A DNA stretch of 64,000 bases. Origin: Pseudomonadota bacterium. Lineage in GTDB: Bacteria; CALINM01. A program made the position numbers and the translations under genes. This document shows positions 20,611-36,164 of the stretch, piece after piece; positions within the stretch are counted from its first letter, which is position 1, and the number at the start of each line of letters is the position of its first letter. Where the stretch lies: the NCBI GenBank assembly GCA_026418415.1, contig JAOABK010000006.1:7688-71687 (forward strand). The letters are read 5' to 3'. The notes under the pieces were generated by a model. That model was not told the DNA's origin and made no database searches. It worked only from the letters and a program-made list of their open reading frames with translations.

Positions 20611-22623
20611 ATGTTAGAGATTTTAGATTTGATAAATAAAATTGATTTGAAGTTACTATATTTTTTTAATATAACCCTTAAAAATCCAATAACTGATTTT
20701 TTGATGCCCCTTTTATCAAGATATGGTTATTTATTTTTTATTCCCTTTTTATTATTAGCTTTCAATGAAAAAAGAAAAGATCTCAATATTTTTATTTTTT
20801 TTGTTTTAACCTTTATTTTTTCAGATTTTATCTCTAATACTCTCAAAAACATAATAATGAGACCCAGACCTTTTGTAGAACATGCAATTATAAATTTGGA
20901 AGGGAGAGGGCTTTCTTATTCTATGCCATCTAATCATGCTACTAATGCCTTTGCTGTAGCTTTCTTTCTTAAAAATTATATTAAAAAAATCTTTCCTCTA
21001 TTCATACTTGCTTCTTTAATTGCTATTAGCAGAGTTATTATAGGAGTTCATTATCCCTCTGATGTTTTAATGGGAATTCTTTTAGGTGCCATTGTAGGAA
21101 TTACTTTTAATAAATTTCTATTGAGTTTTAATAACCTGGTAATAAAGGATAAAAATAAGGCTATCCTGATTATTATTTTAGTCTTCCTGTCTATATTCAG
21201 AATTTTATATATCAAATACTCTCCTATTGATCTTAGTGGAGATGAAGCCCATTATTGGGAATGGTCAAGAAATCTTGATATGAGTTATTATTCCAAGGGG
21301 CCTTTAATTTCTTATATTATCTTCATAGGAACAAAAATATTTGGAGATACGGAATTAGGGGTCAAATTTTTTGCTGTATTTTTTTCCTTTTTCTCAAGCC
21401 TATTAATGTACGAAATTACTGATATGCTTACTAAAAATAAAAAAACATCTTTTTTTAGTGGACTTACTTTACAAGTATTACCTCTCTTCTCATATCTTGG
21501 CATACTCATGACAATAGATAGCCCGTTTCTTTACTTTTGGCTTTTAGGGCTCTATTTAGTTTGTAAAATGACTGTTTTTGATGAGTTTAATTTTTTAAAA
21601 AACTGGTTATATCTGGGAGTGGTAGTTGGTTTAGGAATGCTTTCAAAATATACAATGGTATTCTTTTATCCTTCCTTAGTACTCTTTATATTTTTAGAAA
21701 AAAAATTTTATGTTTTTAAAAAACCAGGATTTTATATTTGTATTTTAACTTCACTTTTGATATTTCTTCCTGTATTGATATGGAATGATACATATGGGTG
21801 GGTCACTCTTAAGCATACAGCTTATCATGCAAGAATAGATAAGGGATTAACATTATCATGGTATGATTTTTTTGAATTTATAATATCTCAAATAGGATTA
21901 CTCACGCCTTTTATATTTTTACTAATGATTTATTCCTTTATTAAATTAACGGGTTTCCAAAGAAACTTTACAATCAGTTTTTTCATAGTTCTATTTAGCT
22001 TTTTTACCTTAAAAAGTATACAGGGCAAAGTAGAGGCAAACTGGCCACTTGTTGCATATCCTTCAGGCATTTTATCTATGAATGTTTTTTGGAATGAGAG
22101 AAAACCGAACTTTTTAATAATCTCTTTCTTGGTTGCTGGAATAATTACCCTTTTTGGATATTTAACCCCCTATTTAAATGTTCCTGAAAAATATAACCCC
22201 TCTTTAAGAATTTTGGGCTGGCAGGAACTTGGGAAAAAGGTTGATTTATTAAAAAATAGTATGGAAAATCCTAAAAAAACAATTATATTTACTGACGACT
22301 ATCAGTTATCAAGCTTAATTTCCTTTTACAGTAAAGATAAGCCTTTTGTCTTTTGTGTTAATTTTACTGGAAGAAGAATGAATCAATATGACATATGGGC
22401 ATATAATGAAAAATTTAATATCAATAATTACCGAAACTACAATGCAATTTTTATAACTAAAAATGACACACCATTTATTGAGTTCCTTATACGTCTTAGT
22501 TGTAATTCCTATGAAAAAAATAAGGAAGTGTTTTATAATAGGAAAATAAAGGTAAGAGAAATATCTTTTTACAGATGCTTTGGACTAAAAAGGATTGTAG
22601 AATTGCCAATTAGGAGTTATTGA
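20611..22623 (+). CDS. fusion of PAP2 lipid phosphatase (N-term) and ArnT/PMT_2-like GT-C glycosyltransferase (C-term)
   Basis: PAP2 motifs KNIIMRPRP, MPSNH, SRVIIGVHYPSDV; GT-C motifs DEAHYWEW..YYSKGP, MTIDSP, SKYT; many TM segments; one uninterrupted frame. Confidence 0.85.
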   Translation: MLEILDLINKIDLKLLYFFNITLKNPITDFLMPLLSRYGYLFFIPFLLLAFNEKRKDLNIFIFFVLTFIFSDFISNTLKNIIMRPRPFVEHAIINLEGRGLSYSMPSNHATNAFAVAFFLKNYIKKIFPLFILASLIAISRVIIGVHYPSDVLMGILLGAIVGITFNKFLLSFNNLVIKDKNKAILIIILVFLSIFRILYIKYSPIDLSGDEAHYWEWSRNLDMSYYSKGPLISYIIFIGTKIFGDTELGVKFFAVFFSFFSSLLMYEITDMLTKNKKTSFFSGLTLQVLPLFSYLGILMTIDSPFLYFWLLGLYLVCKMTVFDEFNFLKNWLYLGVVVGLGMLSKYTMVFFYPSLVLFIFLEKKFYVFKKPGFYICILTSLLIFLPVLIWNDTYGWVTLKHTAYHARIDKGLTLSWYDFFEFIISQIGLLTPFIFLLMIYSFIKLTGFQRNFTISFFIVLFSFFTLKSIQGKVEANWPLVAYPSGILSMNVFWNERKPNFLIISFLVAGIITLFGYLTPYLNVPEKYNPSLRILGWQELGKKVDLLKNSMENPKKTIIFTDDYQLSSLISFYSKDKPFVFCVNFTGRRMNQYDIWAYNEKFNINNYRNYNAIFITKNDTPFIEFLIRLSCNSYEKNKEVFYNRKIKVREISFYRCFGLKRIVELPIRSY

Positions 22624-23573
22624 TGAAAGTATCTATTGTCATTCCTATTTTTAATGAAGAAGAAAATATTAATCTGTTATATGAGAGAATAAAATTCGTC
22701 ATGGATAATACTAAAAATCCTTATGAAATAATATTCGTAGACGATGGAAGTAAAGATAATAGTTTGAATATACTTAAGAAGATACAAGAAAATGATGAAA
22801 AAATTATAGTAATATCTTTAAGAAAAAACTTTGGCCAAACCTCTGCCTTTGCTGCAGGGTTTGATTATGCAACAGGTGATGTGATAATAACAATGGATGG
22901 TGATCTACAAAATGATCCGGATGATATTCCAAAGTTGATTGAACTTTCCAAAGAATATGATATTGTAAGTGGATGGAGAAAGAATAGGAAAGATCCGTTT
23001 ATATCAAGAAGATTACCATCAATTATTGCTAACTGGCTTATTTCTAAAGTAACAGGAGTTAAATTACATGATTATGGATGTAGTTTGAAAGCTTATAGAA
23101 GAGATGTTTTGCAAAATATAAATTTATATGGAGAGATGCATAGATTTATTCCAGCGGTTGCCAGTCAGTATGGAGTTAAAATTACTGAAGTTGAAACAAA
23201 GCACCATCCAAGAAAATACGGTAAATCAAAGTATGGAATTTCAAGAACTTTTAAAGTAATTCTCGATTTAATAATGATAAAATTCTTTCAATCCTTCTTT
23301 TCCAAGCCATTGAGGGCTTTTGGCCCAATTGGGTTAGCAAGTTTTTTTGCAGGATTAATAATATCACTAAAACTTACTTTTGAGAAGTTCTATTACCATA
23401 AGGACATTGGGGGAAGACCTTTATTAATATTAGGTGTAATGCTAATTATAGTTGGCGTTCAGATGCTTGCTATGGGGATTTTAGGTGAATATCTTGTAAG
23501 GATTTATTATGAAACGCAGAAAAAGCCTATTTATTATATAAGAGAAATATATACTTCTAAAAGGGAAAACTAA
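22620..23573 (+). CDS. polyprenyl-phosphate glycosyltransferase (GT2, ArnC/GtrB-like)
   Basis: SIVIPIFNEEE, VDDGSKD, DGDLQNDP, YGEMHRFIP, two C-terminal TMs, GEYLVRIY. Confidence 0.9.
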   Translation: MMKVSIVIPIFNEEENINLLYERIKFVMDNTKNPYEIIFVDDGSKDNSLNILKKIQENDEKIIVISLRKNFGQTSAFAAGFDYATGDVIITMDGDLQNDPDDIPKLIELSKEYDIVSGWRKNRKDPFISRRLPSIIANWLISKVTGVKLHDYGCSLKAYRRDVLQNINLYGEMHRFIPAVASQYGVKITEVETKHHPRKYGKSKYGISRTFKVILDLIMIKFFQSFFSKPLRAFGPIGLASFFAGLIISLKLTFEKFYYHKDIGGRPLLILGVMLIIVGVQMLAMGILGEYLVRIYYETQKKPIYYIREIYTSKREN

Positions 23574-24482
23574 TTGAAAAGATATATCAAATTTTTAGGA
23601 AAGGCATTAATAAGCTTTTTTTTTCTATTTCTTGTTTTTAAAAAACTTGATTTTAATACCATCATCATTGAACTTAAACAAATAAACATAATAATGCTTT
23701 TTTTATCTATTATACTTTATCTAAGCACAATGATTTTTTCTACAATTAGATGGTCTTATTTTGTGAAAACAAAAAAATCTATAAAAGAATTATTCCAACT
23801 ATATATGATTGGCACCTTCTTTAATCTCTTTATGCCTGGTACTGTTGGAGGAGATGTTATAAAAGCATATTATTTATACAAAGAAGATAGAAAAAAAACT
23901 AATCCCCTTGTCTCTGTTTTTATGGAAAGATATATGGGGCTTTGTGCTCTAATAACCATAGCTTTAATTGGATTCTTTTTTGGTTATGATTACATTAAAG
24001 ACAGCTTAATCGACAAATTATTTTATCTAATATGTGCATTATTTATTCTCGGGACACTTTTCGTTTTATTTTTTCCCTATGAAAAATTTTATCATAAATT
24101 AGATAGAGCTCGAGAATCTATTAAAAATTATATGTTTAATCCCTCAATATTTTTTAGGACCTACATATTATCATTAATTGTTCAAGGTATTGGTGTTTTA
24201 GTAGTTTATTTCCTTGGAATTGGCTTATCTATTCCTCTCCAATTTAAGTTTTATCTGATTTTTATACCCATAATAACTGTCATATCCATGATACCTATAT
24301 CCCTTTCAGGCTTCGGTGTTAGAGAGTATGGTTTTTTATATCTCTTAAGCATCTTTGGTATATCAAAGGAGAAAGCAGTAGGACTCTCTTTAATGTGGTT
24401 TTTTACTATGCTCATGACAGGCCTTGTTGGAATGTTTTTTTATTTGAATAAAAAAGTTAATACAAATGTTGACATTAGTTAA
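23574..24482 (+). CDS. LPG-synthase TM / flippase-like membrane protein
   Basis: FFNLFMPGTVGGDVIKA, SVFMER, PISLSGFGVRE; highly hydrophobic; TTG start. Confidence 0.85.
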   Translation: MKRYIKFLGKALISFFFLFLVFKKLDFNTIIIELKQINIIMLFLSIILYLSTMIFSTIRWSYFVKTKKSIKELFQLYMIGTFFNLFMPGTVGGDVIKAYYLYKEDRKKTNPLVSVFMERYMGLCALITIALIGFFFGYDYIKDSLIDKLFYLICALFILGTLFVLFFPYEKFYHKLDRARESIKNYMFNPSIFFRTYILSLIVQGIGVLVVYFLGIGLSIPLQFKFYLIFIPIITVISMIPISLSGFGVREYGFLYLLSIFGISKEKAVGLSLMWFFTMLMTGLVGMFFYLNKKVNTNVDIS

Positions 24483-24496
24483 TTATATGATTTAAT
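24469..24496 (+). promoter_or_regulatory. putative sigma70 promoter of the major pilin
   Basis: Perfect TTGACA (24469-24474), 16 bp spacer, TGn-TTTAAT (24491-24496); GGAGG RBS before ATG 24524. Confidence 0.5.
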
Positions 24497-24523
24497 ATTA
24501 TTATAAAAAGTTGGAGGTAAACT

Positions 24524-24964
24524 ATGAAAAATCAAAAAGGTTTTACTCTAATTGAGTTGGTTATTGTTTTAATTCTTCTTGGTATTTTAGCCGCTGTTGC
24601 TGTACCTAAATTTATGAATCTTCAAGAGGAAGCAAAGAAGTCTGGTGTTAAAGGTGCTGTTGCAAGTGTAAGAAGTGCTATTAATATTTATTATGCTAAT
24701 GCTAATTTGAAGGGAAAAACAACCGTATTCCCACCAAGTGAAACTGTATTAAAGAATATATTGAATGGTCCTATCCCAGATAATGCAGCAGTAATAAATC
24801 CAGGTGCAGACAAGAAGGCAATAGATGTAACTACAACTGCAACACCACCAGCGGTTACAGCAGCAGACAGTACAACTGCAACAAAACCAGCATGGAGATA
24901 TAATTCTAATACAGGGCAGTTCTGGTCAAACTGGGGTGGTGGATTTAAAGCTAATACTTACTAA
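24524..24964 (+). CDS. type IV major pilin, MshA-like
   Basis: Class III signal QKG|FTLIE (E5), GILAAVAVPKF, own promoter, strong RBS and terminator; no Cys; Thr/Ala/Pro-rich insert. Confidence 0.88.
   Translation: MKNQKGFTLIELVIVLILLGILAAVAVPKFMNLQEEAKKSGVKGAVASVRSAINIYYANANLKGKTTVFPPSETVLKNILNGPIPDNAAVINPGADKKAIDVTTTATPPAVTAADSTTATKPAWRYNSNTGQFWSNWGGGFKANTY
24832..24891 (+). repeat. 21-bp imperfect direct repeat within the pilin (TTATPPA / TTATKPA)
   Basis: TACAACTGCAACACCACCAGC (24832-24852) vs TACAACTGCAACAAAACCAGC (24871-24891); 19/21 identical, 39 bp apart. Confidence 0.85.
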
Positions 24965-24967
24965 TTT

Positions 24968-24998
24968 TTTAAAGGCTGCCAAATCGGCAGCCTTTAAA
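24968..24998 (+). terminator. hairpin/intrinsic terminator after the major pilin
   Basis: Perfect 13-bp stem TTTAAAGGCTGCC-aaatc-GGCAGCCTTTAAA, 3 bp after the stop. Confidence 0.85.
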
Positions 24999-25040
24999 CT
25001 TCAATTTGTTTTATTAATCTATTTTTCCAAGGAATAGGAT

Positions 25041-27002
25041 ATAAAAAATAAAAAAGTTTTATTATCCTTCATATTAACATTTTCATTCCTATTTTCAATC
25101 ATCAAGATTAGAAGTTATGATTTATTTATTTATCTTAAAGTTGCTGATTTTGATAGTTTCTTAAATCCTATAAAAACTAATCTTTTTTCCTTTTCCCATT
25201 CCAATTATGGCTACACAAATTATTCAATCATTTTTTCTGAGATAGCTAATTTACTTAATAATTTGTTTGGAATTAGCTCTCTTATTTTTTTTCAATCCCT
25301 TATAATCTCGGTAAGCTTTGGATTGCTAACGCTCATATATAAAAAGAAAAATAATTACATTTTTATTATGATCTTTTTCCTGCTCTCCCTTTTTACTTTG
25401 AGAGAGAGACTTTTATTTAGACCCCATAATTTAAGTTATTTATTTTTTGCAATAAATCTATATCTGTTAGTTAATGACCTGAAAGGTAGATTGTTATTTT
25501 TGTTTTTAAATCAGATCTTTTGGGTAAATACTCATAATAGTTTTATATTAGGAATAATTAATCCCTTTTTATTGTATCCCTTTATACCGAATAGAAGTTA
25601 CAAAAGTTTATTGTTAGTCTTTGCAACAAGTACCTTAGGAAGTTTATTTTCAATACATTTCTTAAAACCCTTTATAGAAATTTTTAACCCCTTTTTAGGA
25701 GAAACGAAAGAACTCTTTAAAATTCTACCAATACATGAATGGCAAACAATAGATTTAAATTTAATTTTATCTTTTTATGGATTACTTGTAATTTTTTCTA
25801 TTTTGCTAATTTTAAAAACAAGGTTCTACAAAATAATCCCCTTTTTTGCATTTTATTTATTTATATCTATAAAATTTGTCAGATTTATAGACTATTTTGC
25901 ATTGTCAGCTTTTTTTACTATGATTATTTTACTTAACAATAATAGTGAGATAGAAGAAAGTCTTAAATTTGTAATTTTAAAATATGCTTTGTTTTTCGTG
26001 ATATTTTTATGGTGTATTATTAGTTATTTTAATAATCCTCTTATACCCTATGGTTTAGGCATGGCTGACTTCTTTTATCCCCAAAATGCTATAGATTTTA
26101 TGAAAAAAAATAAAATAAAGGGAAATATTTATAACAGTTATCCCTTTGGTGGATATATTATTTATAATCTTTTTCCCGATTCTAAACCAATCATTGATGG
26201 CAGGCTTTGTTACCCCTTGGATTTTATAAAATTATATTCAGATTCTCTTGAAGATCCTTATGCATTTAAAAATCTTTTGATTAAGTATAAACCAGAGATT
26301 TTTCTTCTCGATTATAACCACCCTAATATAATAATTTTTCTTGATATTATGAGAGATAGATATAAGCTTGTATATTTTGATGATAATTCAATGATTTTTT
26401 TGGAAAAATCAAATAAGTTTGAGGATATTATAAGAAATCATGAGTATAAGCATATTTCTCCTCAATATGTAATGGGCATAGATATTGAGAAAAAACATGA
26501 TATGGAAAGGGTAATTGAAGAAATACAAAGAAATATTAAGGAAACAAATAGTGTGAGAAGCAATATTATGTTTGGTAATATTCAACTTAATATGGGAAGA
26601 AAAGATAAAGCTAAAGAAATATTCAAACAAGTAATTAAAAGGGAAAGTCCTATTGGCAAAGCAGAGGCTTATAATAATCTTGGAATATTATATCTTGAAA
26701 ACAATGATATAAGTAATGCTATTAAAATGTTTAAAAAAGCGATCTTTTTTAACCAAGATTTTGATATAGCATATTACAATTTAGCTTTAATTTATAGAGA
26801 AAGAAATGATTTTGTTAGTTCCTTTTACCATCTATTTAGATATTTAATTATTCAAAAAAGTAAAGGCGAAGTAAAAGATGATTTAAAGACTGAATTCATT
26901 GAGGTATTTAAGCAAGCAATTAAAAGTGTAATTAAGTACACAGGTCTAATGTTGGCTATTTTTGGTATTCTTTACATATTGTTTATAAAAAAAAGAGGGT
27001 AG
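25041..27002 (+). CDS. multi-TM GT-C-like membrane protein with C-terminal TPRs (candidate pilin glycosyltransferase); apparent ATA start
   Basis: Frame is open from TAG 25035-25037; extension (M)KNKKVLLSFILTFSFLFSIIKIRSYDLFIYLK...NLFSF; motifs RPH..S, WVNTH, IHEW, NSYPFGGY, IDGR; TPRs AEAYNNLG / AYYNLA. ORF track starts at TTG 25263. Function is inferred. Confidence 0.65.
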   Translation: MKNKKVLLSFILTFSFLFSIIKIRSYDLFIYLKVADFDSFLNPIKTNLFSFSHSNYGYTNYSIIFSEIANLLNNLFGISSLIFFQSLIISVSFGLLTLIYKKKNNYIFIMIFFLLSLFTLRERLLFRPHNLSYLFFAINLYLLVNDLKGRLLFLFLNQIFWVNTHNSFILGIINPFLLYPFIPNRSYKSLLLVFATSTLGSLFSIHFLKPFIEIFNPFLGETKELFKILPIHEWQTIDLNLILSFYGLLVIFSILLILKTRFYKIIPFFAFYLFISIKFVRFIDYFALSAFFTMIILLNNNSEIEESLKFVILKYALFFVIFLWCIISYFNNPLIPYGLGMADFFYPQNAIDFMKKNKIKGNIYNSYPFGGYIIYNLFPDSKPIIDGRLCYPLDFIKLYSDSLEDPYAFKNLLIKYKPEIFLLDYNHPNIIIFLDIMRDRYKLVYFDDNSMIFLEKSNKFEDIIRNHEYKHISPQYVMGIDIEKKHDMERVIEEIQRNIKETNSVRSNIMFGNIQLNMGRKDKAKEIFKQVIKRESPIGKAEAYNNLGILYLENNDISNAIKMFKKAIFFNQDFDIAYYNLALIYRERNDFVSSFYHLFRYLIIQKSKGEVKDDLKTEFIEVFKQAIKSVIKYTGLMLAIFGILYILFIKKRG

Positions 27003-27045: not shown

Positions 27046-27489
27046 ATGAAGGGACTTACATTAATTGAGTTTGTGATGACACTTATTGTACTGTCAATCA
27101 TATTCGTAGTAGTCATTTTAGGCATGAGAAAACCTCTTGATGTAAATTTAGACTTAGCAACAAAAAAAGTTTATGGTGACCTTTCATTTATAAGAGAGAA
27201 AGCAATTTCTACAAATAAAAGATATAAAATTTATTTACAAACTCCAGATATATTTATGGCTGGGTTTGGCAATTATACGCTAATTATTAATCCCGATGAT
27301 CAATCTAAATTAAGATATAAATTGGGAGATAAATATCCTAAAGTCTCATTTTTCAAAAATTATTCTGTTGCTTTTGATGGTTTAGGGAGGAATATTTTTA
27401 GAACTCAGACTTCGATTATAATCAAGACCAGTACTAATCAAAAGATAATTAAAATAAACCCTGAACATGGCAGAGTTTATGTATATTAG
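27046..27489 (+). CDS. minor pilin, FimT/GspH/MshC-like
   Basis: MKG|LTLIE prepilin motif; VAFDGLGR and IKINPEHGRV GspH-like C-terminus. Confidence 0.82.
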   Translation: MKGLTLIEFVMTLIVLSIIFVVVILGMRKPLDVNLDLATKKVYGDLSFIREKAISTNKRYKIYLQTPDIFMAGFGNYTLIINPDDQSKLRYKLGDKYPKVSFFKNYSVAFDGLGRNIFRTQTSIIIKTSTNQKIIKINPEHGRVYVY

Positions 27490-27862
27490 TATTACAAAAG
27501 GATTTACATTAATAGAAGTTGTAATTGTAATACTTCTAATAGCAATAGCAGTACCAGCTATTATTTTTCCTGTTTTTGAATCTTCGAAACAAAGCTATCG
27601 AAGTGAAGAATATCTTAACGGCTTGTTTCTAGCAGAAGGAAAAATGGAAGAGATAACACGATTTAAAAATATTTCGGGTCTTGATAGAACAATTAATAGA
27701 ACATTAACCAATAAATTTGATGATACTTTGGTTGGATTTAATAGAAAAGTTACTTATTTCCCATATTCCAGCTGGAGAGGGGTTTTTACCGTGACTGTTA
27801 GTAAGCAAAATGTGGGATCAATTAAAATTACAACATGGTTTACTAGATATTCCTCACTATGA
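27467..27862 (+). CDS. minor pilin, PilV/MshD-like
   Basis: KG|FTLIE, LAEGKMEEI; start may be ATG 27479. Confidence 0.82.
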   Translation: MAEFMYISITKGFTLIEVVIVILLIAIAVPAIIFPVFESSKQSYRSEEYLNGLFLAEGKMEEITRFKNISGLDRTINRTLTNKFDDTLVGFNRKVTYFPYSSWRGVFTVTVSKQNVGSIKITTWFTRYSSL

Positions 27863-28335
27863 AGAAAGCTGAAAGAGGTTTTACACTTATTGAAATAGTA
27901 TTAGCAGTAGTTTTAATAGGTATAATTGCTGGCTTTGTTGGTAGAATATTATTTCAAGAAATAAATTTTTATAGATTAATATTACCTCGGAAAGAAGTAA
28001 AAGTAGAAAACAAGCTTGTTTTTGAGAGAATTATAAAAGAAGCAAAAGATGCATATAAAAATAGTTATAATTCAGGAAATAATGTAAGGTTTAAAGTTCC
28101 TTATAATACTTTTAAAGGATACACGTCAGTTAGAATTTATCTAAGTAGTAATAAACTATATTTCTCAACTGATAGTAAACCAGCCAGTATCATAGGGGAA
28201 CAAATTGCTTTTTTCAATATAACATCTATTAGATGGATACCTAAAAGGGATTTAATAAAAGTAAAGCTTATTTCAAATGTTAATAATACTTTAATTAACC
28301 AGGAAACTGAGATTTATTTGAGGAATCAAAGGTGA
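27859..28335 (+). CDS. minor pilin, PilW/MshO-like
   Basis: RG|FTLIE, C-terminal IYLRN. Confidence 0.82.
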   Translation: MKKAERGFTLIEIVLAVVLIGIIAGFVGRILFQEINFYRLILPRKEVKVENKLVFERIIKEAKDAYKNSYNSGNNVRFKVPYNTFKGYTSVRIYLSSNKLYFSTDSKPASIIGEQIAFFNITSIRWIPKRDLIKVKLISNVNNTLINQETEIYLRNQR

Positions 28336-29123
28336 ATAATAGAGGCTTTGCCTTAGTAAATGTGGTTGTAGCTTTAATAATTATCTCATTAGTTGCTCTA
28401 CTTTTTACTAATTTAATCTCTATCGAATCAAACATTGCAATGGATAAATTTTTCAGTACTAAAGCTTACTATTCTGCCCAATCTGGTATAGAGAATGCTC
28501 AAAGAATTTTATCATTAAACTATAATTGGTATTATATGCAAGAGGGAATTTTAGAAAGCAGAAGCGACAATTTGGATGGAGCATCATATATTACTAACGT
28601 ATATCTACCCGCAACTGCATTAAAAAAGGATATAAATAAAAATAAAACAACAATTGATGTTTTTGACACATCAAGGTTTCCATCCTCAAATATACTTCTT
28701 CTAATCAATAGTGAGCAAATTCTTTGTTCTGGGAAGACCAGTTCTACATTTACAAATTGTCAAAGAGGATATAATGGTACAACCAAAGACAAACATGATG
28801 CAGGTTCCTTTGTATTTCAGGTTGCCACCTTGATTTCTGTTGACAATGCAAAAAGAACAATCACAGTTAATAATAATGAGAAATTTATAACATCTGGATT
28901 ACTTTTGATAGATTCAGATCCCACTTTCCCAGATCCAGTTGAAGTAACTTATACTGATAAAAGTAACAATATTTTTTGGGGATGTGATGATCTAAGCTGG
29001 TATACACCGGGAACTTATTATGTTATAAACTCTGGATTGGATTTAAGAGAACAGATTGAAATTATCTCAGAAGGTAGATATAAGGGCATAGTAAAGAAAA
29101 TTAATAGCACAATATTTAGGTAA
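28332..29123 (+). CDS. minor pilin, PilX/MshP-like, with two inserted beta-rich modules
   Basis: RG|FALVN (no E5, as in PilX), KAYYSAQSGIE PilX N-terminal motif; insert at about aa 94-232. Confidence 0.8.
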   Translation: MNNRGFALVNVVVALIIISLVALLFTNLISIESNIAMDKFFSTKAYYSAQSGIENAQRILSLNYNWYYMQEGILESRSDNLDGASYITNVYLPATALKKDINKNKTTIDVFDTSRFPSSNILLLINSEQILCSGKTSSTFTNCQRGYNGTTKDKHDAGSFVFQVATLISVDNAKRTITVNNNEKFITSGLLLIDSDPTFPDPVEVTYTDKSNNIFWGCDDLSWYTPGTYYVINSGLDLREQIEIISEGRYKGIVKKINSTIFR

Positions 29124-29133
29124 GGGGTTGTTT

Positions 29134-30816
29134 ATGAAAAAATTATTTATAGTGTTATTTATAATCTTTTTATCATCAACAACTTCATATGCTGCGAGAA
29201 GTTTTACAGTTGCTAATTTAGCTGGAGCTACAGTTGATTTTTATATGCGCGATACTGTAGCTATGACCCTACGTGTTACAAATACGAACACAGGTGCTGA
29301 TATTAATGATGGTATAAGACAGGTCAGATTTACTTTTCCCGCTGGAATGAAAGTTAACACAACAGGTAATATTGCACCATCAGGCTGGACTGTATCAAAT
29401 GTAGACTCAGTAAGAAATAGGATAACTTTTGATGCAAACAATAGTTCTTATTACTTTACTGCTAATAATTATAGGGATTTTATTATTAGTTTGACAGTTC
29501 AACCTTCAACTAATGATATTATGTCTGAGAATTTATCATCAGTTCGAGTGGTGTATGCTTCATCAAATAGGACGACATTAAATAATTTGGGTGTTTCTTG
29601 GAATAGGCGAGGACTCAAGATTCAAAGTATAGTTGCCTCTCCAGATCTTCTTGTCTCAGGAGATCCTTTTACTCTTACAATTACCGTTCAAAATGTTTCC
29701 TCTGCAACTCAGACAAATATTACTGCGAACCCAAACCCACCAAGTGAGACTTCAACTGGTGGTTTCAATCCATCTACAACAAGTAATCCCGTAATTGGAA
29801 CTTTAGGATTCCTCCAAACAGGAACACTCGTGTACAACTATACAACCCTAACAACCGATGAAGGTAGTGTATATTTTTCTTGTAATGTAAGAAATGGAGC
29901 AAGCAATACATCAGGCATTTCAGTAAATTCTAATACTGTTTATATCGGAAGATTCACTGCAAGTATAAGTTACTCTCCAGAATGTCCATTAAGCGGAGAA
30001 ACAATAAATGTAACCATGACAGTAACAAATAATAATGTCTTTAGCCTTACAAATGTAACACCTACTTTAACACCTTCTGGTACTGCAACATTAGTAAAAT
30101 TGTCTGGACCTACTCCAGCATCAGTTGCTACTTTAAATAGTGGTAGTAGCGCTTCATTTACTTACACTTATCAAATAACTGGTGCTTTTGATTCAAATTT
30201 CTATTTTTCTGGTTATGCTATAGGAACTAAAAACACGCCTCCAGTTGGTACAAGACAAACGCCTACTTATAATACACCAATGAGATATGTTAGGGAATAT
30301 TCTTTAGATATTTCTCCTGATTTTGTATTAAGTGGAGTGAAAAGTTACTACTTAAAATTTACATTAAATAATAGAGTCAATAATGTTTGTGCTACAGATA
30401 ATAACTATAATATAAAAAGAGTTACAATCACTATGCCTTCGGGATTTAGTTACTCTTTAAGTAATTTCTCCTATATAATTGGAAATAACATAACAGATAT
30501 CAATGATCCTAATTATGAATATTACACCGATAATTGGAATATATTGGATAATTCTGGTCAAATATCTTTTGTGTCAAATAATTCAACCTATGATTTGCCC
30601 GTTAAAAGAGATGGTTATTTTTCTTTGTTTATAACGAGTACTCCTGTAGTTTCAACAAATACAATTTATACCTTCCAAACTACTATAGAAAACGTTAAAG
30701 GTGGTCTTATAAATTATAGTGGGAGTAATGTACAGCTTAATGTAAGTCCAACACCAGCAGGGATTACTAATAAACCAACACCATCTAAAGGGGGGATCAG
30801 AGAAAGGCATGAATAA
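29134..30816 (+). CDS. secreted Thr/Ser/Asn-rich Ig-like repeat protein, putative pilus tip adhesin (PilY1/MshQ position)
   Basis: Sec signal (SYA|ARS), repeats SPxxxxSG..F/I.lTiTVxN...TNxT, beta-strand-rich; directly after the PilX-like gene. Confidence 0.7.
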   Translation: MKKLFIVLFIIFLSSTTSYAARSFTVANLAGATVDFYMRDTVAMTLRVTNTNTGADINDGIRQVRFTFPAGMKVNTTGNIAPSGWTVSNVDSVRNRITFDANNSSYYFTANNYRDFIISLTVQPSTNDIMSENLSSVRVVYASSNRTTLNNLGVSWNRRGLKIQSIVASPDLLVSGDPFTLTITVQNVSSATQTNITANPNPPSETSTGGFNPSTTSNPVIGTLGFLQTGTLVYNYTTLTTDEGSVYFSCNVRNGASNTSGISVNSNTVYIGRFTASISYSPECPLSGETINVTMTVTNNNVFSLTNVTPTLTPSGTATLVKLSGPTPASVATLNSGSSASFTYTYQITGAFDSNFYFSGYAIGTKNTPPVGTRQTPTYNTPMRYVREYSLDISPDFVLSGVKSYYLKFTLNNRVNNVCATDNNYNIKRVTITMPSGFSYSLSNFSYIIGNNITDINDPNYEYYTDNWNILDNSGQISFVSNNSTYDLPVKRDGYFSLFITSTPVVSTNTIYTFQTTIENVKGGLINYSGSNVQLNVSPTPAGITNKPTPSKGGIRERHE

Positions 30817-30867: not shown

Positions 30868-31731
30868 ATGAGCAATTTTATAGAATACTTTAAATTAAGA
30901 ACTGATCCCTTTAGTTTAACACCTAATTTTCATTTTTTTTATGGTTCTAAAAAACATATTGAGGTTTTAAAATCTCTATATGGAGGCATAATTAATAACA
31001 AAGGAGTTTTTGTCCTTACAGGTGAAGTGGGTACTGGAAAAACAATTACAAGTAGGGTCCTAATAGAAAAGCTGATAAATTATTATAATATTGCTTATAT
31101 AGTGAATCCCTTCTTATCAAAAGAAGGCATCGTAAAACAGATAGCAGAAGAATTCAAAATTCCATCAACAAATAAGAGATATGATGCATTAATAACTGAT
31201 ATACACATGTTTTTAATTGAACAGTTAAAAAAGGGTAGGGGAGCGCTTGTTTTTATAGATGAAGCGCAACATTTATCTGATGATACATTAGAAATGGTTA
31301 GAATGCTTTCTAATTTAGAAACGAAACAGACAAAACTTTTACAGTTCATTCTAATTGGTCAACAGGAATTAATAAAAAAACTATCAAAAAGAAATTTGAG
31401 GCAGATCGCTCAAAGAGTGTCGATTAAGTGTGAGTTAACGCCATTAAATCATATAGAAACCCATAATTATATTCTTCATCGTCTGAAAATAGCTGGTGGG
31501 CTTGGTAAGGTAGAATTTAGCAAACTTGCAATTTATAATATTTATAAGCTAACAAAGGGCTTTCCAAGAACTTTGAATATTTTAATGTATCACATACTTT
31601 CTAAAGCAGCTGAAAAAGAACAACATATTATTGACGTAAATTTAGTCAAGGAAGCCTATAAAAATACTCTTCCTCTTCCCCTTAGGGTTTTGCCTTTTTC
31701 TTTAGCTAAAGCAATTAGAGGTTGGTTATGA
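30868..31731 (+). CDS. ExeA/MshM-family AAA ATPase (no peptidoglycan-binding C-terminal domain)
   Basis: PFSLTP, LTGEVGTGKT, IDEAQHL, LIGQQEL, YILHRL, GFPRTLN. Confidence 0.9.
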   Translation: MSNFIEYFKLRTDPFSLTPNFHFFYGSKKHIEVLKSLYGGIINNKGVFVLTGEVGTGKTITSRVLIEKLINYYNIAYIVNPFLSKEGIVKQIAEEFKIPSTNKRYDALITDIHMFLIEQLKKGRGALVFIDEAQHLSDDTLEMVRMLSNLETKQTKLLQFILIGQQELIKKLSKRNLRQIAQRVSIKCELTPLNHIETHNYILHRLKIAGGLGKVEFSKLAIYNIYKLTKGFPRTLNILMYHILSKAAEKEQHIIDVNLVKEAYKNTLPLPLRVLPFSLAKAIRGWL

Positions 31732-32450
31732 GCAAAACCTATGAAGAAATCAAAGATATAGAAATTAATCATAATAAGAATGGCGAAGAAGAATTAGATG
31801 AGATTGATATAATTGATGGTAAAGAAGAAAAAAAACCCTTATATTCTAAAACAGTTAAGGTCCTTATTTTATTAATTGCATTAATTGCCGCAATTTATGT
31901 GGGTTATTATTTGGGCGGGCTTTATAAAAAGAGAGCCAATATTTCAATCAAACAAGAATCTGGCTTAATAACTAATTTTAAAAAAGATGAAGAAATGAAG
32001 CATATAACTAAATTTGAATTTATAGCTATTGAAGGGACAAAGAGAGAGTTAGAAAAAAAATTAGAAGAACTAATTAGTATAAAAAACAAAGATAATTTAA
32101 CAAATAACAATATAGCTTTGATTTTAGCTGAATTAGGAAACTATAATGAAGCTCTTACCTACGCTGAAAAATTAATTATTACAGAACCCAATAATCCCTA
32201 TTTTTGGAACACCTTCGGTATTATTTTAACCTATCTAAATCTATTTGATGATGCTGAGAAATCATTTAAAAAAGCAATAAACTTAAAGGGTGATGAAGGT
32301 GTTTTTTACTATAATTTAGGCAATCTTTATGAAAGAGAAGGCAAATATGATTTAGCTAAAGAGCAGTATTTATATTATCTTTCAAAAGGTGATAAATATA
32401 ATTCAAATAATGAAAGAAGAATTAAACAAAAAATTTCAAAGGGAATATGA
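31728..32450 (+). CDS. membrane-anchored TPR protein (MshN-like)
   Basis: MSKTYEEIK N-terminus, one TM, TPRs (FWNTFGIIL, FYYNLGNLYE); follows the ExeA-like ATPase. Confidence 0.7.
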   Translation: MSKTYEEIKDIEINHNKNGEEELDEIDIIDGKEEKKPLYSKTVKVLILLIALIAAIYVGYYLGGLYKKRANISIKQESGLITNFKKDEEMKHITKFEFIAIEGTKRELEKKLEELISIKNKDNLTNNNIALILAELGNYNEALTYAEKLIITEPNNPYFWNTFGIILTYLNLFDDAEKSFKKAINLKGDEGVFYYNLGNLYEREGKYDLAKEQYLYYLSKGDKYNSNNERRIKQKISKGI

Positions 32451-33424
32451 AATTTTTCATGAAAAGAAAAGTAACTGGAATTGATTTTGGAAGCAAGACC
32501 ATAAAAATTGTTTCCACTAAATTTATTAAAAATAGAATTTCTGTAGATAAAGCCCTAATAATTGAAAAACCAAAGCAAATTGGAAATGAAAAAGATTATA
32601 AAGTAAACTTTAGTTTAGTAAATGAATCTGCTCGTAGAAAAGGTATTTCTCTGAATAATGTTGCTATTTGTTGTCCTAATAACTTGTATACCTCAGTAAA
32701 TTTAGTATTACCAAAAATGAAAAAACAACAAGATATTAAATCTGCCATATTGTGGGAATTAAAAGATAGATATGGAATGGAACCTACAGAAATAAATTTT
32801 GATTACTTTATTAATGATATATCTGAAGATCAAAAGATAGAGTATCAAATATATTTTGTAGACAAGAAATCTATTGAAGAAATTCAAAAGGAGGCCCAAA
32901 AATTTAACATAAATATCAAGTATATAAATATCGATCATGTAGCATATGCTATATGTTTTAACAATTTGTATACACAGGATGAGAATATAAAAGTTTTACT
33001 TGATATAGGATACCAAAAAAGTATTATTATTTTTCTATCCAAAGATAAAATTTTGTTCATGCGCGAACTTGGATTGGGATTAATAAATATAATAAATCAA
33101 CTAACTGAAGAAGAAATTAGAAATATGAAGATAAAAGGAATATCAGGTTATGATAATGAAAACATAAAAAATTATATTACAGAGGTTTTATTTGAAATAT
33201 CAAAAACTATAGATTATTTCATAAATGGACTTAAATATCCTGGACCAACTTCGATATTTTGTAATGGTGGTTTTTTTTCAATACCAGGCATTTTTCAGTT
33301 TTTTAAAGATAATTTGCCTTATCCAGTAATTTTGAATAATGTTTTAAAACTTGCAAATTACGAAGGTGAATATAAAAATTTTGGATATATTTTTCATTTA
33401 GCATTAGGTGTTTCTATTTTATGA
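32447..33424 (+). CDS. pilM: PilM/MshI-like actin-fold assembly protein
   Basis: GIDFGSKTIKIV, LLDIG, NGGFFSIPG, ALGVSI. Confidence 0.8.
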   Translation: MKFFMKRKVTGIDFGSKTIKIVSTKFIKNRISVDKALIIEKPKQIGNEKDYKVNFSLVNESARRKGISLNNVAICCPNNLYTSVNLVLPKMKKQQDIKSAILWELKDRYGMEPTEINFDYFINDISEDQKIEYQIYFVDKKSIEEIQKEAQKFNINIKYINIDHVAYAICFNNLYTQDENIKVLLDIGYQKSIIIFLSKDKILFMRELGLGLINIINQLTEEEIRNMKIKGISGYDNENIKNYITEVLFEISKTIDYFINGLKYPGPTSIFCNGGFFSIPGIFQFFKDNLPYPVILNNVLKLANYEGEYKNFGYIFHLALGVSIL

Positions 33425-33951
33425 GACCTATAAATCTTGCAACTAAACCAAAATTATATCCCTTAACCCAAAAAATTCAATCAAGGCTTTCTGTATTGAT
33501 TTTTTTGCTACTGATTGTATATTTCTCTTTAAAAATTTTATTCCTAAACTATAAACAAAAAGAGCTGGCAAAAGATATAGATTTAATTAATAAAGAGTTA
33601 ATACAAATTAGAGAAATGATTAGTCAAAGACAACAGGTTTTAGAATTAAAAAAAAGTATTGAAAAAGAATTTTCTATTAACATAGATAAAAATATGATTA
33701 CCAATAATTCATTTATATCCCAATTATTTAACTCTCTTTCACAAATTACCCCAGAAAACATTTGGATTACTTCTTTAGAATTGAAATATGGAGATGAAAA
33801 GTTTATCAGGATTTCAGGGAAGAGTAAAATCAAAGGTGATATTTTTATCTTTATGGATAATTTAAAAAAGATATACAGGGATGTTAATTTAATTAGTATG
33901 CAGAATACAGAGAATAGTATATACAATTTCCAATTGAGGCTCGACATCTGA
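33421..33951 (+). CDS. pilN: PilN-like assembly protein
   Basis: INL N-terminal motif, TM, coiled coil, TPENIWITSL. Confidence 0.82.
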   Translation: MRPINLATKPKLYPLTQKIQSRLSVLIFLLLIVYFSLKILFLNYKQKELAKDIDLINKELIQIREMISQRQQVLELKKSIEKEFSINIDKNMITNNSFISQLFNSLSQITPENIWITSLELKYGDEKFIRISGKSKIKGDIFIFMDNLKKIYRDVNLISMQNTENSIYNFQLRLDI

Positions 33952-34496
33952 TGAAAAAATATTTAGATTTTATAAAAAATCATAGAATATTAATTTACTC
34001 AATCTTGTTAGGAGGTTTTTTATTTTTTGCAATAAACAAATTTTATATCAATAAAATTGAAGAAAAGAATATTAAAATGCTTACAGAAAGAGAAAATCTA
34101 ATTAAACAAAAAAATGAATTACTTAATTTAATTGCCAGTTTGAAAAAAGAAAATGAAGCATTAGAAAAAGAAAATATAACATTAAAGGATATTTTACTAT
34201 TTAAAACAAAAATTTTAGATATGAAAAACAAGGCTATTTTTTTTAATCACATAAGTAATTTTAATGGTATATTACTCGAAAGCATAGTGCCAGGAAACAT
34301 AGATAAAAGTTCTCCAAATTTATTCAAGTGGACAATTAATATAAGTATAAGAGGTAGCTATAGAGAAATAAAAAATTACATTGATTATTTAAATAAACTT
34401 CCCTATTTAATTATTATTAACAGATTAGAAATGAGCAAAAACCCCCAAAAGCCAATAAATTCTGCTCAAATAACACTGGAGGTGTTATGCAGATAA
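33951..34496 (+). CDS. pilO: PilO/MshJ-like assembly protein
   Basis: TM, coiled coil, ISIRGSYREIKNYIDYLNKLP. Confidence 0.8.
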   Translation: MKKYLDFIKNHRILIYSILLGGFLFFAINKFYINKIEEKNIKMLTERENLIKQKNELLNLIASLKKENEALEKENITLKDILLFKTKILDMKNKAIFFNHISNFNGILLESIVPGNIDKSSPNLFKWTINISIRGSYREIKNYIDYLNKLPYLIIINRLEMSKNPQKPINSAQITLEVLCR

Positions 34497-34855
34497 AAAA
34501 ATTATCTTTCCTTATCATAATAATGATTTTATATCCCTATTTACTTAGGAGCGAGAATAGAGTTATGTATATTGGTTACTTAAAACCCTATGAGAGAGGA
34601 GAGGCGAAAAAGAGTTTTCGGTTAGATCCAACGGAGGAACCCAAGATAAAAATTGGTATAGAAAAGGAACCCATTAAGCCAGATAATCTCGATTTAAAGG
34701 GGATATTATATAATCCAAAGGAAAAAAGAGCTTTTATTAATGAAGAGCTTTATAAAGAAGGTGAAATAGTAGAGGGTTATAGGGTTAATAAGATACTTCC
34801 AGACAAAGTTATAATGATTAAAAATAATACCCAATTTGAACTTAAAATTGAATAA
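34487..34855 (+). CDS. PilP/MshK/GspB-like periplasmic assembly protein
   Basis: RLDPT..P, LKGILY...AFIN....EG..V.G..V.KI..D.V motif; precedes the secretin. Confidence 0.7.
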   Translation: MQIKKLSFLIIIMILYPYLLRSENRVMYIGYLKPYERGEAKKSFRLDPTEEPKIKIGIEKEPIKPDNLDLKGILYNPKEKRAFINEELYKEGEIVEGYRVNKILPDKVIMIKNNTQFELKIE

Positions 34856-34868
34856 AAGGGGCTTTTTC

Positions 34869-36164
34869 ATGAAAAGGTTAATTATAATTTTTTTAATTAT
34901 AACAAGCATAAACCAATCATTAGCTAACACAGATACCAATACTATACTTAATGAAACAGAAAAAAAATACACACTCAACTTCAAAACTCAACCCATATCA
35001 GAGGTTTTGAGAGCATTGGCAAAGCAAGCGTCATTAAATATCATATTACCAGATAACATGCCAGAAAATATTAGTATTTCTCTTAACAATGTAACTTTAA
35101 AAAGCGCTATTGAGTCAATTCTTTTGTCAAGAGGTTATAATTACAAAATAGAAAACAACATCTTGAGAGTTTATAAAGATGAATATAAACCAAAAGTTGT
35201 CATGGAAGTTATTAATTTGCAGTATGCAAATGCTAATACAATAGCAGGAACCCTTTCAAAAATGTTTAGCTCAGCTTCCATACAACATGATGTCTCTACA
35301 AACTCCTTAATAATTAAAGATGAGGAGAGTGTTGTTTCTGAGATAAAAAAAATTATACAAAGACTTGATGTTAGAACAAAACAGGTTCTAATAGAAGCAA
35401 AGATAGTAAATGCTACTGAATCCTTTAGTAGAGATTTGGGGATTCAGTGGGGTGGTTTTTTTAGTAATAGCTCTCAGTCAAATAAAATTTTTGGGATAAG
35501 TCCGAACACCTCAGGCACCACAACAACCTTTGGAACTTCGAATCCGGGAGATAATTTCGTTATAAATGCTCCAATACAAACAACTCCAATAGGAAACTTA
35601 GGGATTATTATAGGAAGCCTACATAAAAACTTAAGAATAGACCTGGCTCTACAGTTAGCGGAACAAAAAGGACAGGCAAAGATTGTATCTTCGCCAAAGA
35701 TACTAACGCTTGATAATAAAAGAGCAACTATCCGAAGTGGGGCAACCCTTAGAATTCGTTCTATACCACTCGGATCTTCCGTAACATCAGGTGTAACAGC
35801 TACAGTTGAGACAATTAATACTGGTGTAGAGTTAGGTGTTACTCCACAAATAACAGGAGATGATAACATTACTCTAACAGTTGATGTAGGACAAAGCGAA
35901 CCCAATTTTGATAGAAAGGTTGAAAATATTCCAGAGGTCCAGGATCAAAGAGCCTCAACATCTATACTCCTTAAAGATGGAGAAACAGTAGTAATAGGTG
36001 GACTATATAGAGTTATAGAAGGAGAAACAGTTACAGGAATCCCATTCCTTTCTGATTTGCCTTTTATTGGTTGGTTATTTAAATCTAAAAGCAAAGAAAA
36101 AAGAAATGAGGAGTTAATGATTTTCTTGACTCCTAGAATTATCAAAGAAACAGCAAAAAATTAA
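34869..36164 (+). CDS. short type IV pilus secretin (PilQ/MshL-like)
   Basis: Signal peptide, N-domain, QVLIEAKIV, LGIQWG, SSPKILTLDN, GETVVIGGL, IPFLSDLPFIGWLF, ELMIFLTPRII. Confidence 0.92.
   Translation: MKRLIIIFLIITSINQSLANTDTNTILNETEKKYTLNFKTQPISEVLRALAKQASLNIILPDNMPENISISLNNVTLKSAIESILLSRGYNYKIENNILRVYKDEYKPKVVMEVINLQYANANTIAGTLSKMFSSASIQHDVSTNSLIIKDEESVVSEIKKIIQRLDVRTKQVLIEAKIVNATESFSRDLGIQWGGFFSNSSQSNKIFGISPNTSGTTTTFGTSNPGDNFVINAPIQTTPIGNLGIIIGSLHKNLRIDLALQLAEQKGQAKIVSSPKILTLDNKRATIRSGATLRIRSIPLGSSVTSGVTATVETINTGVELGVTPQITGDDNITLTVDVGQSEPNFDRKVENIPEVQDQRASTSILLKDGETVVIGGLYRVIEGETVTGIPFLSDLPFIGWLFKSKSKEKRNEELMIFLTPRIIKETAKN

Follow-up and report, generated by a model that had tools for sequence, protein, structure and literature searches.

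In a 64,000-nucleotide stretch of contig JAOABK010000006.1 (assembly GCA_026418415.1; hereafter the window), a gene at 25041..27002 follows the gene for a major type IV pilin and encodes a polytopic membrane protein with tetratricopeptide repeats (TPRs). All window features described here are on the plus strand. Judging from its predicted structure and conserved residues, this protein is very probably a GT-C-fold glycosyltransferase with an active site (Asp27) that faces the periplasm and with a flipped polyprenyl phosphate sugar as donor. Its acceptor may be the pilin encoded 76 nt upstream, which would give it a role like that of TfpW in Pseudomonas; we put this reading at a probability of roughly 40%. 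An earlier note on this DNA had proposed a pilin O-glycosylation system here. Its GT-C fold, Asp-bearing loop and TPRs have stood, as has a recurrent adjacency to pilins, whereas its views of the upstream genes as sugar suppliers, of a Thr-rich pilin segment as an insert and of a family lacking any characterized member have not.

We built an AlphaFold2 (AF2) model of the protein (653 aa if the start is the ATA at 25041) on a 36-sequence alignment and compared it with known structures by Foldseek and by an exhaustive VIA search against 48,161 chains. The model scored well (predicted local distance difference test, pLDDT, 93; predicted template-modeling score, pTM, 0.89), and its top VIA matches were all GT-C enzymes, the best being STT3B (Z 19.6, 436 residues aligned, root-mean-square deviation 3.7), followed by DPY19 (17.0), Pmt4 (16.8), PglB (16.7), Pmt1/2 (16.4), AglB (14.9) and ALG12 (14.4) and, at lower values, by AftB (13.9), ALG9 (13.7), AftA (12.2), ArnT (12.0) and AftD (11.4). 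These twelve enzymes (Z 19.6-11.4) ranked above every row that was neither GT-C nor TPR. The top non-TPR matches from Foldseek were exclusively oligosaccharyltransferase (OST) or DPY19 chains (E 1e-5 to 7e-4, probability 1.00), so the GT-C fold that the earlier note had guessed from the letters is also what the predicted structure gives. Residues 469-630 matched TPR proteins (VIA Z 11-13). The nearest annotated clusters in a protein language-model atlas were Dpy19, PMT_2 and STT3, at 0.93, which we treat as a lead only.

Profile searches did not reveal this relationship. Pfam and NCBIfam have no model that covers the catalytic part of the protein, neither database gave an STT3 or AglB family match at E up to 0.01, and Pfam gave no PMT, PMT_2 or Wzy_C match. 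Aligned by hhalign, the family alignment had no usable similarity to the genome's own AglB-like protein (probability 1.9) or to the PAP2-PMT_2 protein encoded upstream in the window (probability 0.1).

The protein is laid out as a basic N-terminus, a first transmembrane (TM) helix, the Asp27 loop, about eleven TM helices, an alpha/beta domain, the TPRs, a last TM helix and a basic tail. The polytopic core (residues 1-335, 25041..26045; helices in the AF2 model and hydropathy) includes a flexible periplasmic loop at about 220-245 (pLDDT 66-78 for residues 221-240) and leads into the periplasmic alpha/beta domain (residues 336-470, 26046..26450). Because 436 residues were aligned to STT3B and the core has only about 335, most of the periplasmic domain superposes as well. 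The TPR domain (26451..26870; Pfam TPR_1, TPR_8 and TPR_2, AF2 and VIA) has about 3-4 repeats with helices at 488-607, and its position between the periplasmic domain and the final TM helix, together with the number of helices and the basic character of both termini, suggests that it too is periplasmic. The C-terminal TM helix (helix 613-652, hydropathy peak 631-649) and a basic, predicted cytoplasmic tail (…FIKKRG) with the stop occupy 26871..27002.

Conservation was scored on the same 36 sequences, which extend down to about 20% identity. Asp27 (codon 25119-25121), directly after the first TM helix, is invariant in 36 of 36, as are W161, N163, G171, R281, N365, G370, D386 and R388; R123, R127 and H165 are at least 90% conserved, the last completing a W161-x-N163-x-H165 motif. 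N365, G370, D386 and R388 lie in the alpha/beta domain, which also carries the conserved motif N-x-[YF]-x-x-G-x-[YF]. The motifs quoted in the earlier note are all present (SYDLF at residues 25-29, NSYPFGGY at 365-372 and IDGR at 385-388, plus TPR_1 at E 2.6e-13), and its Asp in the loop after the first TM helix is the invariant Asp27. Close family members additionally share an acidic-x-acidic pair at positions 36-38. Catalysis, donor type, topology and acceptor are what we infer for the protein.

The link to the pilin rests on gene order in related genomes. The window's genome (G000), a genus-mate (G001) and the remaining species genomes (G002-G005) represent its GTDB phylum in the collection searched, and loci with L-numbers include metagenome contigs; the window, G001, L097 and L098 make up what we call the g1 lineage. 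The six species genomes belong to one family and three genera, are about 1.6-2.2 Mb in size (the window is about 30% G+C) and carry varying labels, Proteobacteria or Deltaproteobacteria, in their public records; the window's lineage has not been cultured. Loci were scanned for with 20 close GT-C sequences. Of the 11 ortholog loci with a visible upstream side, five (window, G001, L097, L098 and G004) have a pilin gene that lies directly 5' of the GT-C gene, on the same strand and with gaps of 68-81 nt. A further locus, L104, in which the GT-C gene is followed by minor pilins, was left out of this count because its upstream side is cut off.

The five adjacent loci represent two genomic contexts. 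The window and G001 share full synteny from the ArnT-like gene onward, and so do the L097 and L098 metagenome contigs, but the G004 pair stands outside any pilus operon, 3' of genes for a response regulator/kinase and a HAD-like protein. Adjacency thus recurs within the lineage, at loci that span GT-C divergence down to 45-50% identity. In 2-Mb genomes it is improbable that the two genes were joined twice, independently, with identical order and orientation, and we take the adjacency to be ancient and since lost from some genomes. Our quick tree leaves its three basal groups unordered and is used for no claim about ancestral states.

The pilin (24524..24964) is a 146-aa major type IV prepilin of MshA/GspG-like type (N_methyl E 3.5e-10) with orthologs in all five other genomes of the phylum. 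Its AF2 model (pLDDT 77) has a long N-terminal helix and a small sheet. Residues 101-124 (24824..24895; DVTTTATPPAVTAADSTTATKPAW) contain 8 Thr in 24 positions and form a Thr/Ala/Pro-rich loop between strands 100-103 and 124-127 (pLDDT 60-72). The earlier note took this segment for a low-complexity insert, an idea that we rejected on the ortholog alignment: five orthologous pilins have a loop within about 3 residues of the same length, except that it is shorter in G004. The loop is richer in Thr, Ala and Pro in the window genus and conserved within the g1 lineage, and on the modeled structure it is a reasonable candidate site of O-glycosylation. A predicted complex of the GT-C protein with the mature pilin (residues 7-146) scored 0.00 in a run without control folds and has no bearing either way. 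The L098 pilin gene (4443-4902) is frameshifted after about residue 35, which may reflect an assembly error or a pseudogene.

The pilin gene is bracketed by possible transcription signals. A sigma-70-like promoter match (TTGACA-18-TAATAT, 10 of 12 consensus positions) precedes it at 24469..24498, although such sites are no more numerous in the region than in shuffled sequence, so that this one counts as a consensus match only. A 13-bp GC-rich hairpin resembling a terminator or attenuator follows at 24968..24998, and alignment revealed comparable sequences 3' of the L097 and L098 pilin genes.

The inner-membrane GT-C enzyme would very probably take a sugar carried on polyprenyl phosphate and flipped from the cytoplasm, and transfer it at a periplasmic active site. 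The conserved periplasmic alpha/beta domain and the anchored TPR domain form an arrangement that would fit recognition of a protein acceptor. If this acceptor is the pilin, the enzyme would meet it before assembly, when both share one membrane and the globular head of the pilin, Thr-rich loop included, is in the periplasm.

The earlier note listed a GT2 gene, a flippase-like gene, the pilin and the multi-TM/TPR protein between 22620 and 27002, where all four are indeed found, and cast the first two as the pilin's supply genes. The first (22620..23573) encodes a 317-aa GT2 of ArnC/GtrB type, a putative polyprenyl-phosphate glycosyltransferase (Glycos_transf_2 E 6e-37) whose best NCBIfam match is ArnC (PRK10714; E 7.7e-73, 245 bits, under the 529-bit cutoff). 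The second (23574..24482) encodes a 302-aa flippase-like polytopic protein (LPG_synthase_TM, PF03706, E 3.6e-44; TIGR00374, E 1.2e-20) that presumably flips a lipid-linked sugar. The two genes remain a pair in G002, G003 and G004 (68-73% identity for the GT2 orthologs, 52-61% for the flippase-like ones), back-to-back with a PMT_2-type GT-C gene and with no pilin nearby; the pair is also together in G001, L097 and L098. LPS (lipopolysaccharide)-core genes lie beside it in G002 and G003, and the G004 contig ends inside the PMT_2 gene. The pair is thus coupled to the 25041 GT-C gene only in the g1 lineage but to a PMT_2 GT-C gene in G002, G003 and G004, a distribution that does not bear out a supply role for the pilin. 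It is better seen as part of an LPS/lipid A module, in which it primarily supplies the donor to a PMT_2 enzyme, as in classical three-component sets. Given this conserved setting, its position before the pilin gene, which has its own promoter-like site and strong hairpin, looks like the border at which two modules meet.

In the window, the corresponding enzyme would be the product of 20611..22623, a 670-aa PAP2-PMT_2/ArnT-like GT-C fusion (Pfam PAP2 E 3.8e-22, PMT_2 E 4e-30) with sub-threshold NCBIfam matches to ArnT (E 3.4e-9) and LpxE (E 1.9e-4). It is likely the partner of the GT2 and flippase-like pair that modifies the acceptor, lipid A or another lipid-linked molecule. We found this fusion in no lineage other than g1, where L097 and L098 have it at full length and G001 retains a C-terminal fragment. 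The PMT_2 partners of G002 (518 aa) and G003 (513 aa) are encoded on the opposite strand and are unrelated by BLAST to the window fusion (compared with L092 8001-9557). In G002, an epimerase gene lies between the GT2 and flippase-like genes.

A pilin-linked GT-C enzyme with TPRs is already known in TfpW, although the earlier note knew of no characterized member of this GT-C/TPR family, and by analogy the window gene can be regarded as a variant of this theme. As described in the accessible part of its report, TfpW of P. aeruginosa/paraeruginosa group IV is a pilin D-arabinofuranosyl transferase encoded immediately after pilA (bioRxiv 10.1101/2020.04.19.049825). That text presents it as a 646-aa GT-C protein with a periplasmic C-terminal TPR domain and an essential DDX motif in loop 1, which uses a polyprenyl-phosphate sugar, has ArnT as its best modeling template and is required, and with donor genes supplied sufficient, for pilin arabinosylation. 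Set beside this published description (no TfpW name occurs among 50 homolog matches), the window protein is alike in gene position after the pilin, size (653 versus 646 aa), GT-C class, acidic residue in loop 1 and periplasmic TPRs. It differs in loop 1, where R-S-Y-D-L-F contains a single invariant Asp in place of the reported DDX and no Asp-Asp occurs in residues 19-62, and in its structural relatives, with ArnT at only Z 12.0 against 16-20 for STT3, DPY19, PMT and PglB. Two of its parts have no equivalent in TfpW as there described, namely the additional alpha/beta periplasmic domain and the TM helix that anchors the C-terminus behind the TPRs. Our literature search, whose reach did not include bioRxiv supplements, found no described GT-C/TPR pilin enzyme other than TfpW.

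The best structural matches over residues 1-458 are to the STT3/PglB/AglB oligosaccharyltransferases, which we take to constitute CAZy family GT66 and which share the acidic residue after the first TM helix. The loop at 220-245 presumably stands in place of their external loop 5 (EL5). A WWDYG motif in the periplasmic domain is the hallmark of OSTs, whereas the window protein has no WW or WWD in its 653 residues and no STT3/AglB Pfam match; conversely, TPRs and a C-terminal anchor are not known as OST features.

Animal TMTC proteins, according to the accessible part of one account, have a GT-C core followed by lumenal TPRs (PMC7801869). TMTC1-4 thus resemble the window protein in combining this core with TPRs. 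They and the fungal and animal PMT O-mannosyltransferases (GT-C/PMT clan) use a lipid-phosphate-monosaccharide donor and Ser/Thr acceptors in proteins, as the window protein may, and the PMT enzymes resemble it in structure as well (Pmt4 Z 16.8, Pmt1/2 Z 16.4). The window protein differs from them in having no PMT/PMT_2 match, no MIR domain and no Asp-Glu pair, either in loop 1 or elsewhere.

Three-component periplasmic glycosylation, as outlined in the part of another source available to us, combines a polyprenyl-phosphate-sugar synthase, a flippase and a GT-C enzyme (PMC11127046). The window likewise brings together an ArnC-type GT2, a flippase-like protein and GT-C enzymes, as in the ArnC/ArnT, GtrA/B/V and GT136 systems. 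Its flippase candidate, however, belongs to PF03706 rather than to GtrA or MATE, the conserved GT-C partner is of PMT_2 type, and the substrates of these systems are glycans or lipid A, in contrast to the protein proposed as acceptor of the window GT-C enzyme. TfpO, in some species, is encoded right after the pilin gene and glycosylates the pilin (per the accessible text of bioRxiv 10.1101/2020.04.19.049825), but the PglL/TfpO/PilO enzymes (Wzy_C) have another fold and family; the window protein lacks Wzy_C, and its structural matches are GT-C and not ligase-like.

Several observations weigh against the pilin as acceptor. Adjacency is absent in 6 of the 11 ortholog loci (G002/L001, L099, G005/L002, G003/L004, L102 and L101). 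In these the GT-C gene follows a transaldolase-like gene on the opposite strand (G002, L099) or cytochrome c biogenesis-like genes (G003/L102, G005), and the pilin ortholog lies in the pilus operon (G002) or after a HAD-like gene (G003, G005) with nothing resembling the window GT-C gene beside it; in G003, the two genes are 82 kb apart. The G004 pair occurs on one contig at about 1.4x coverage, where a mis-join is possible, and its pilin, though encoded next to the GT-C gene, does not have the Thr-rich loop composition. The window GT-C copy has no canonical start codon, and our literature search found no biochemical data for any family member.

Remote homologs add to these points. We examined the neighborhoods of two sets (15 homologs in 14 loci, and 25 loci, with six common to both; 34 distinct loci) and found type IV pilin-like genes within 1.5 kb at one locus (L127) and TadE-like genes at one (L076). 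No locus of the first set has a type IV pilin beside it, and one of the 25 in the second set does. The neighbors are instead PMT_2 (4 loci), GT2 (2), Wzy_C (2), GT4, epimerase, GT87, YfhO and unrelated genes. Because remote homologs are almost never beside pilins, the family as a whole is not dedicated to them; the linkage that the earlier note expected of homologs thus appears at about half of the ortholog loci and is essentially absent from remote ones.

At L127 (29-3051; G154 contig C2), a 514-aa remote homolog is followed by two tandem pilin-like genes on the same strand whose products have identical N-termini (MKKGFTLIELL…). L076 (4090-9714; G019 contig C7) encodes a 520-aa remote homolog without TPRs, positioned after TadE-like pseudopilin genes and before a gene for a GT87-family membrane glycosyltransferase.

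These points lend weight to the idea that the acceptors are other envelope proteins, such as the 562-aa Ser/Thr-rich protein of the pilus operon, the minor pilins or, as in general O-glycosylation, many proteins, so that the position of the pilin gene would be uninformative. The GT-C gene is core to the phylum (6 of 6 genomes) whatever its neighbors, and in G002, G003 and G005 it is found apart from the pilin gene. The wider family shows no pilin linkage (1 of 34 loci), Ser and Thr make up 25% of the 562-aa protein, and a TPR domain suits protein recognition generally. Nevertheless, the same order, strand and spacing of pilin and GT-C genes in two contexts is unlikely to arise by chance in genomes of about 2 Mb, and G002 retains the GT-C gene even though its pilus operon keeps no counterpart of the 562-aa protein. 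We consider this idea somewhat unlikely. A glycan or lipid acceptor (LPS core, lipid A, exopolysaccharide or a peptidoglycan-linked polymer) would place the enzyme with the upstream LPS genes, the pilin gene merely lying between. The GT-C gene does stand two genes 3' of the PAP2-ArnT-like, GT2 and flippase-like set, with KdtA, LpxK and heptosyltransferase genes further up, remote homologs occur near the PMT_2, Wzy_C, GT2, GT4, epimerase and GT87 genes noted above, and many GT-C enzymes (ArnT, Aft, Emb) act on lipids or glycans. But G002, G003 and G004 have the GT2, flippase-like and PMT_2 set without this GT-C gene, which in G004 accompanies the pilin and not LPS genes, and the pilin gene has its own promoter-like site and hairpin. 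Moreover, the enzymes that score highest in the structural search modify proteins (Z 16-20 for STT3, DPY19, PMT and PglB, with ArnT, Aft and AftD at 11-14), and a glycan or lipid acceptor appears improbable.

How the pilin enzyme would obtain its donor is a related question. In a dedicated-supply arrangement like that of the earlier note, the GT2 at 22620 and the flippase-like protein would maintain one polyprenyl-phosphate-sugar pool that feeds both the ArnT-like enzyme (20611) and the pilin-decorating GT-C enzyme. The five genes concerned adjoin one another in a single orientation in the window, G001, L097 and L098, and a fusion of GT2 and GT-C exists in the family (P0147). The genome also encodes at least three GT-C enzymes but no more than two GT2 proteins of ArnC type, which calls for some sharing of donors. 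However, the pair is conserved beside a PMT_2 GT-C gene without a pilin in G002, G003 and G004. In G004, one contig (C42) carries the pilin and GT-C genes and another (C28) the GT2 and flippase-like genes. Promoter-like and terminator-like signals also bracket the pilin gene in the window, and we consider a dedicated supply improbable too. Alternatively, the protein might not be an enzyme at all but a membrane-anchored TPR scaffold for pilus biogenesis, in the manner of PilF/PilW/Tgl, on a degenerate GT-C chassis. The best NCBIfam matches of its TPR part are PilW, Tgl and MamA-type TPR proteins (all far under cutoff), its gene lies inside a pilus operon, and the window copy lacks a canonical start codon. 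Such TPR cross-matches are unspecific, however, and the nine residues that are invariant at about 20% identity, including the loop-1 Asp and the periplasmic Asp and Arg, form a pattern like that of an active site. Conservation is also highest in the periplasmic domain and among the lowest in the TPRs, and we regard a scaffold as highly improbable. Glycosylation of the major pilin, in a TfpW-like role, is the reading we prefer.

The family to which the enzyme belongs is large and unnamed. An exhaustive profile search returned 14,973 cluster representatives at E <= 1e-30, some of them perhaps multi-TPR proteins. In each of the best 150 the match spans the GT-C core, and the 150th still stands at E 5.8e-110. 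We scanned 40 of these 150, and 38 matched no Pfam family. One of the other representatives had a sub-threshold PMT_2 match (21.8 bits against a 26.1-bit cutoff), and P0147 (875 aa) has a GT2 domain (residues 4-160) fused to the GT-C core (243-798) and a TPR. P0147 is the sole member of the best 150 whose match begins far from the N-terminus (residue 243). The best matches of its GT2 domain, both under cutoff, are AglJ and ArnC, which are polyprenyl-phosphate glycosyltransferases, and GT2 genes flank 2 of the 15 remote homologs in the first set. TPRs are present in 11 of these 15. In a broad sample of 301 genomes, 54 had a family match at E <= 1e-50, several with 2-4 copies. The gene is single-copy in five of the six genomes of the phylum, and G001 retains its first ~100 residues at a contig end.

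It is possible, though rather doubtful, that the family forms a class of its own among the periplasmic enzymes that glycosylate bacterial proteins, apart from PglB, PglL/TfpO and ArnT/PMT_2-like TfpW, with an MshA-like pilin as substrate in this phylum. Equally tentatively, such a class would be marked by an OST-like core, a conserved periplasmic domain peculiar to it and, in most cases, TPRs, and this member would be the first with a readable clue to its acceptor.

Pilin glycosylation alters the surface chemistry of pili, and to our knowledge the enzymes responsible are largely unknown outside a few proteobacteria. In Pseudomonas, according to the accessible part of one report, it shields pili from pilus-specific phages (bioRxiv 10.1101/150227). 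The GT-C gene is a concrete candidate for a pilin glycosyltransferase in a candidate phylum of six species genomes, and assigning one acceptor would provide a handle on thousands of unannotated membrane proteins. Should the acceptor not be the pilin, the finding shrinks to an unannotated GT-C enzyme encoded beside a pilus operon.

The start of the GT-C gene in the window is unusual. The frame is open from 25038 and contains no ATG, GTG or TTG ahead of the first TM helix, and the first canonical start, the TTG at 25263, is downstream of both this helix and the conserved Asp. The 653-aa reading is covered over 87-100% of its length, N-terminus included, by 21 close homologs with 43-63% identity (at least 95% in 18 of the 21). 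The window TAG at 25035-25037 is TTG in G001, and L097 and L098 begin at a TTG four codons downstream. From these alignments, translation in the window probably starts at ATA 25041, six bases past AAGGA, or else the start codon has been damaged or mis-sequenced. The automatic gene call (P0001) comprises only the 463 C-terminal amino acids, and the catalytic loop is lost from it.

The GT-C/TPR gene is also the fastest-evolving gene at its locus. Between the window and L097 (4983-6977), its product is 49% identical, compared with 92% for the pilin and 59-83% for other neighbors. The periplasmic domain is best kept (65%), ahead of the TM core (50%), the TPRs (45%) and the C-terminal anchor (28%). 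The contrast with the pilin might suggest that GT-C alleles have been swapped independently of it, but we rejected swapping as the simplest reading because the gene diverges fast everywhere: the G004 protein is 49-50% identical to those of G003 and G005, versus 78-84% for housekeeping neighbors.

Pfam and NCBIfam matches divide the surrounding region into an LPS gene set and, after it, a pilus gene set. The former comprises genes for KdtA (16639), LpxK (17882), a GmhB-like HAD protein (18873) and a GT9 heptosyltransferase (19603), and then the fusion, GT2 and flippase-like genes described above. In the latter, the pilin and GT-C genes are followed by genes for three minor pilins and a PilX-like protein (27046..29123; N_methyl/TIGR02532, PilX_N) and for the 562-aa Ser/Thr-rich secreted protein (29128..30816; signal peptide). 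Pilus assembly genes (30868..36164; Pfam) then encode an MshM/ExeA-like AAA protein, a TPR protein, PilM, PilN, PilO, a T2SSB-like protein and a secretin. The 562-aa protein, encoded between the PilX-like and MshM-like genes within the operon, has only a weak DUF7507 match. It is an alternative candidate acceptor, with orthologs in L097 and L098; in its absence, the G002 operon has a 510-aa PilX-like protein instead.

A second glycosylation cluster lies elsewhere in the window's genome (G000 contig C66; L095 6726-11752). It encodes a protein of 704 aa that looks like an archaeal-type oligosaccharyltransferase (AglB_L1 and AglB_core-like domains), together with a second ArnC-like GT2 (47% identical to that of the window), a DUF2304 protein and two further GT2 proteins. 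The same gene set recurs in G003 (L096), with two copies of the OST-like gene.

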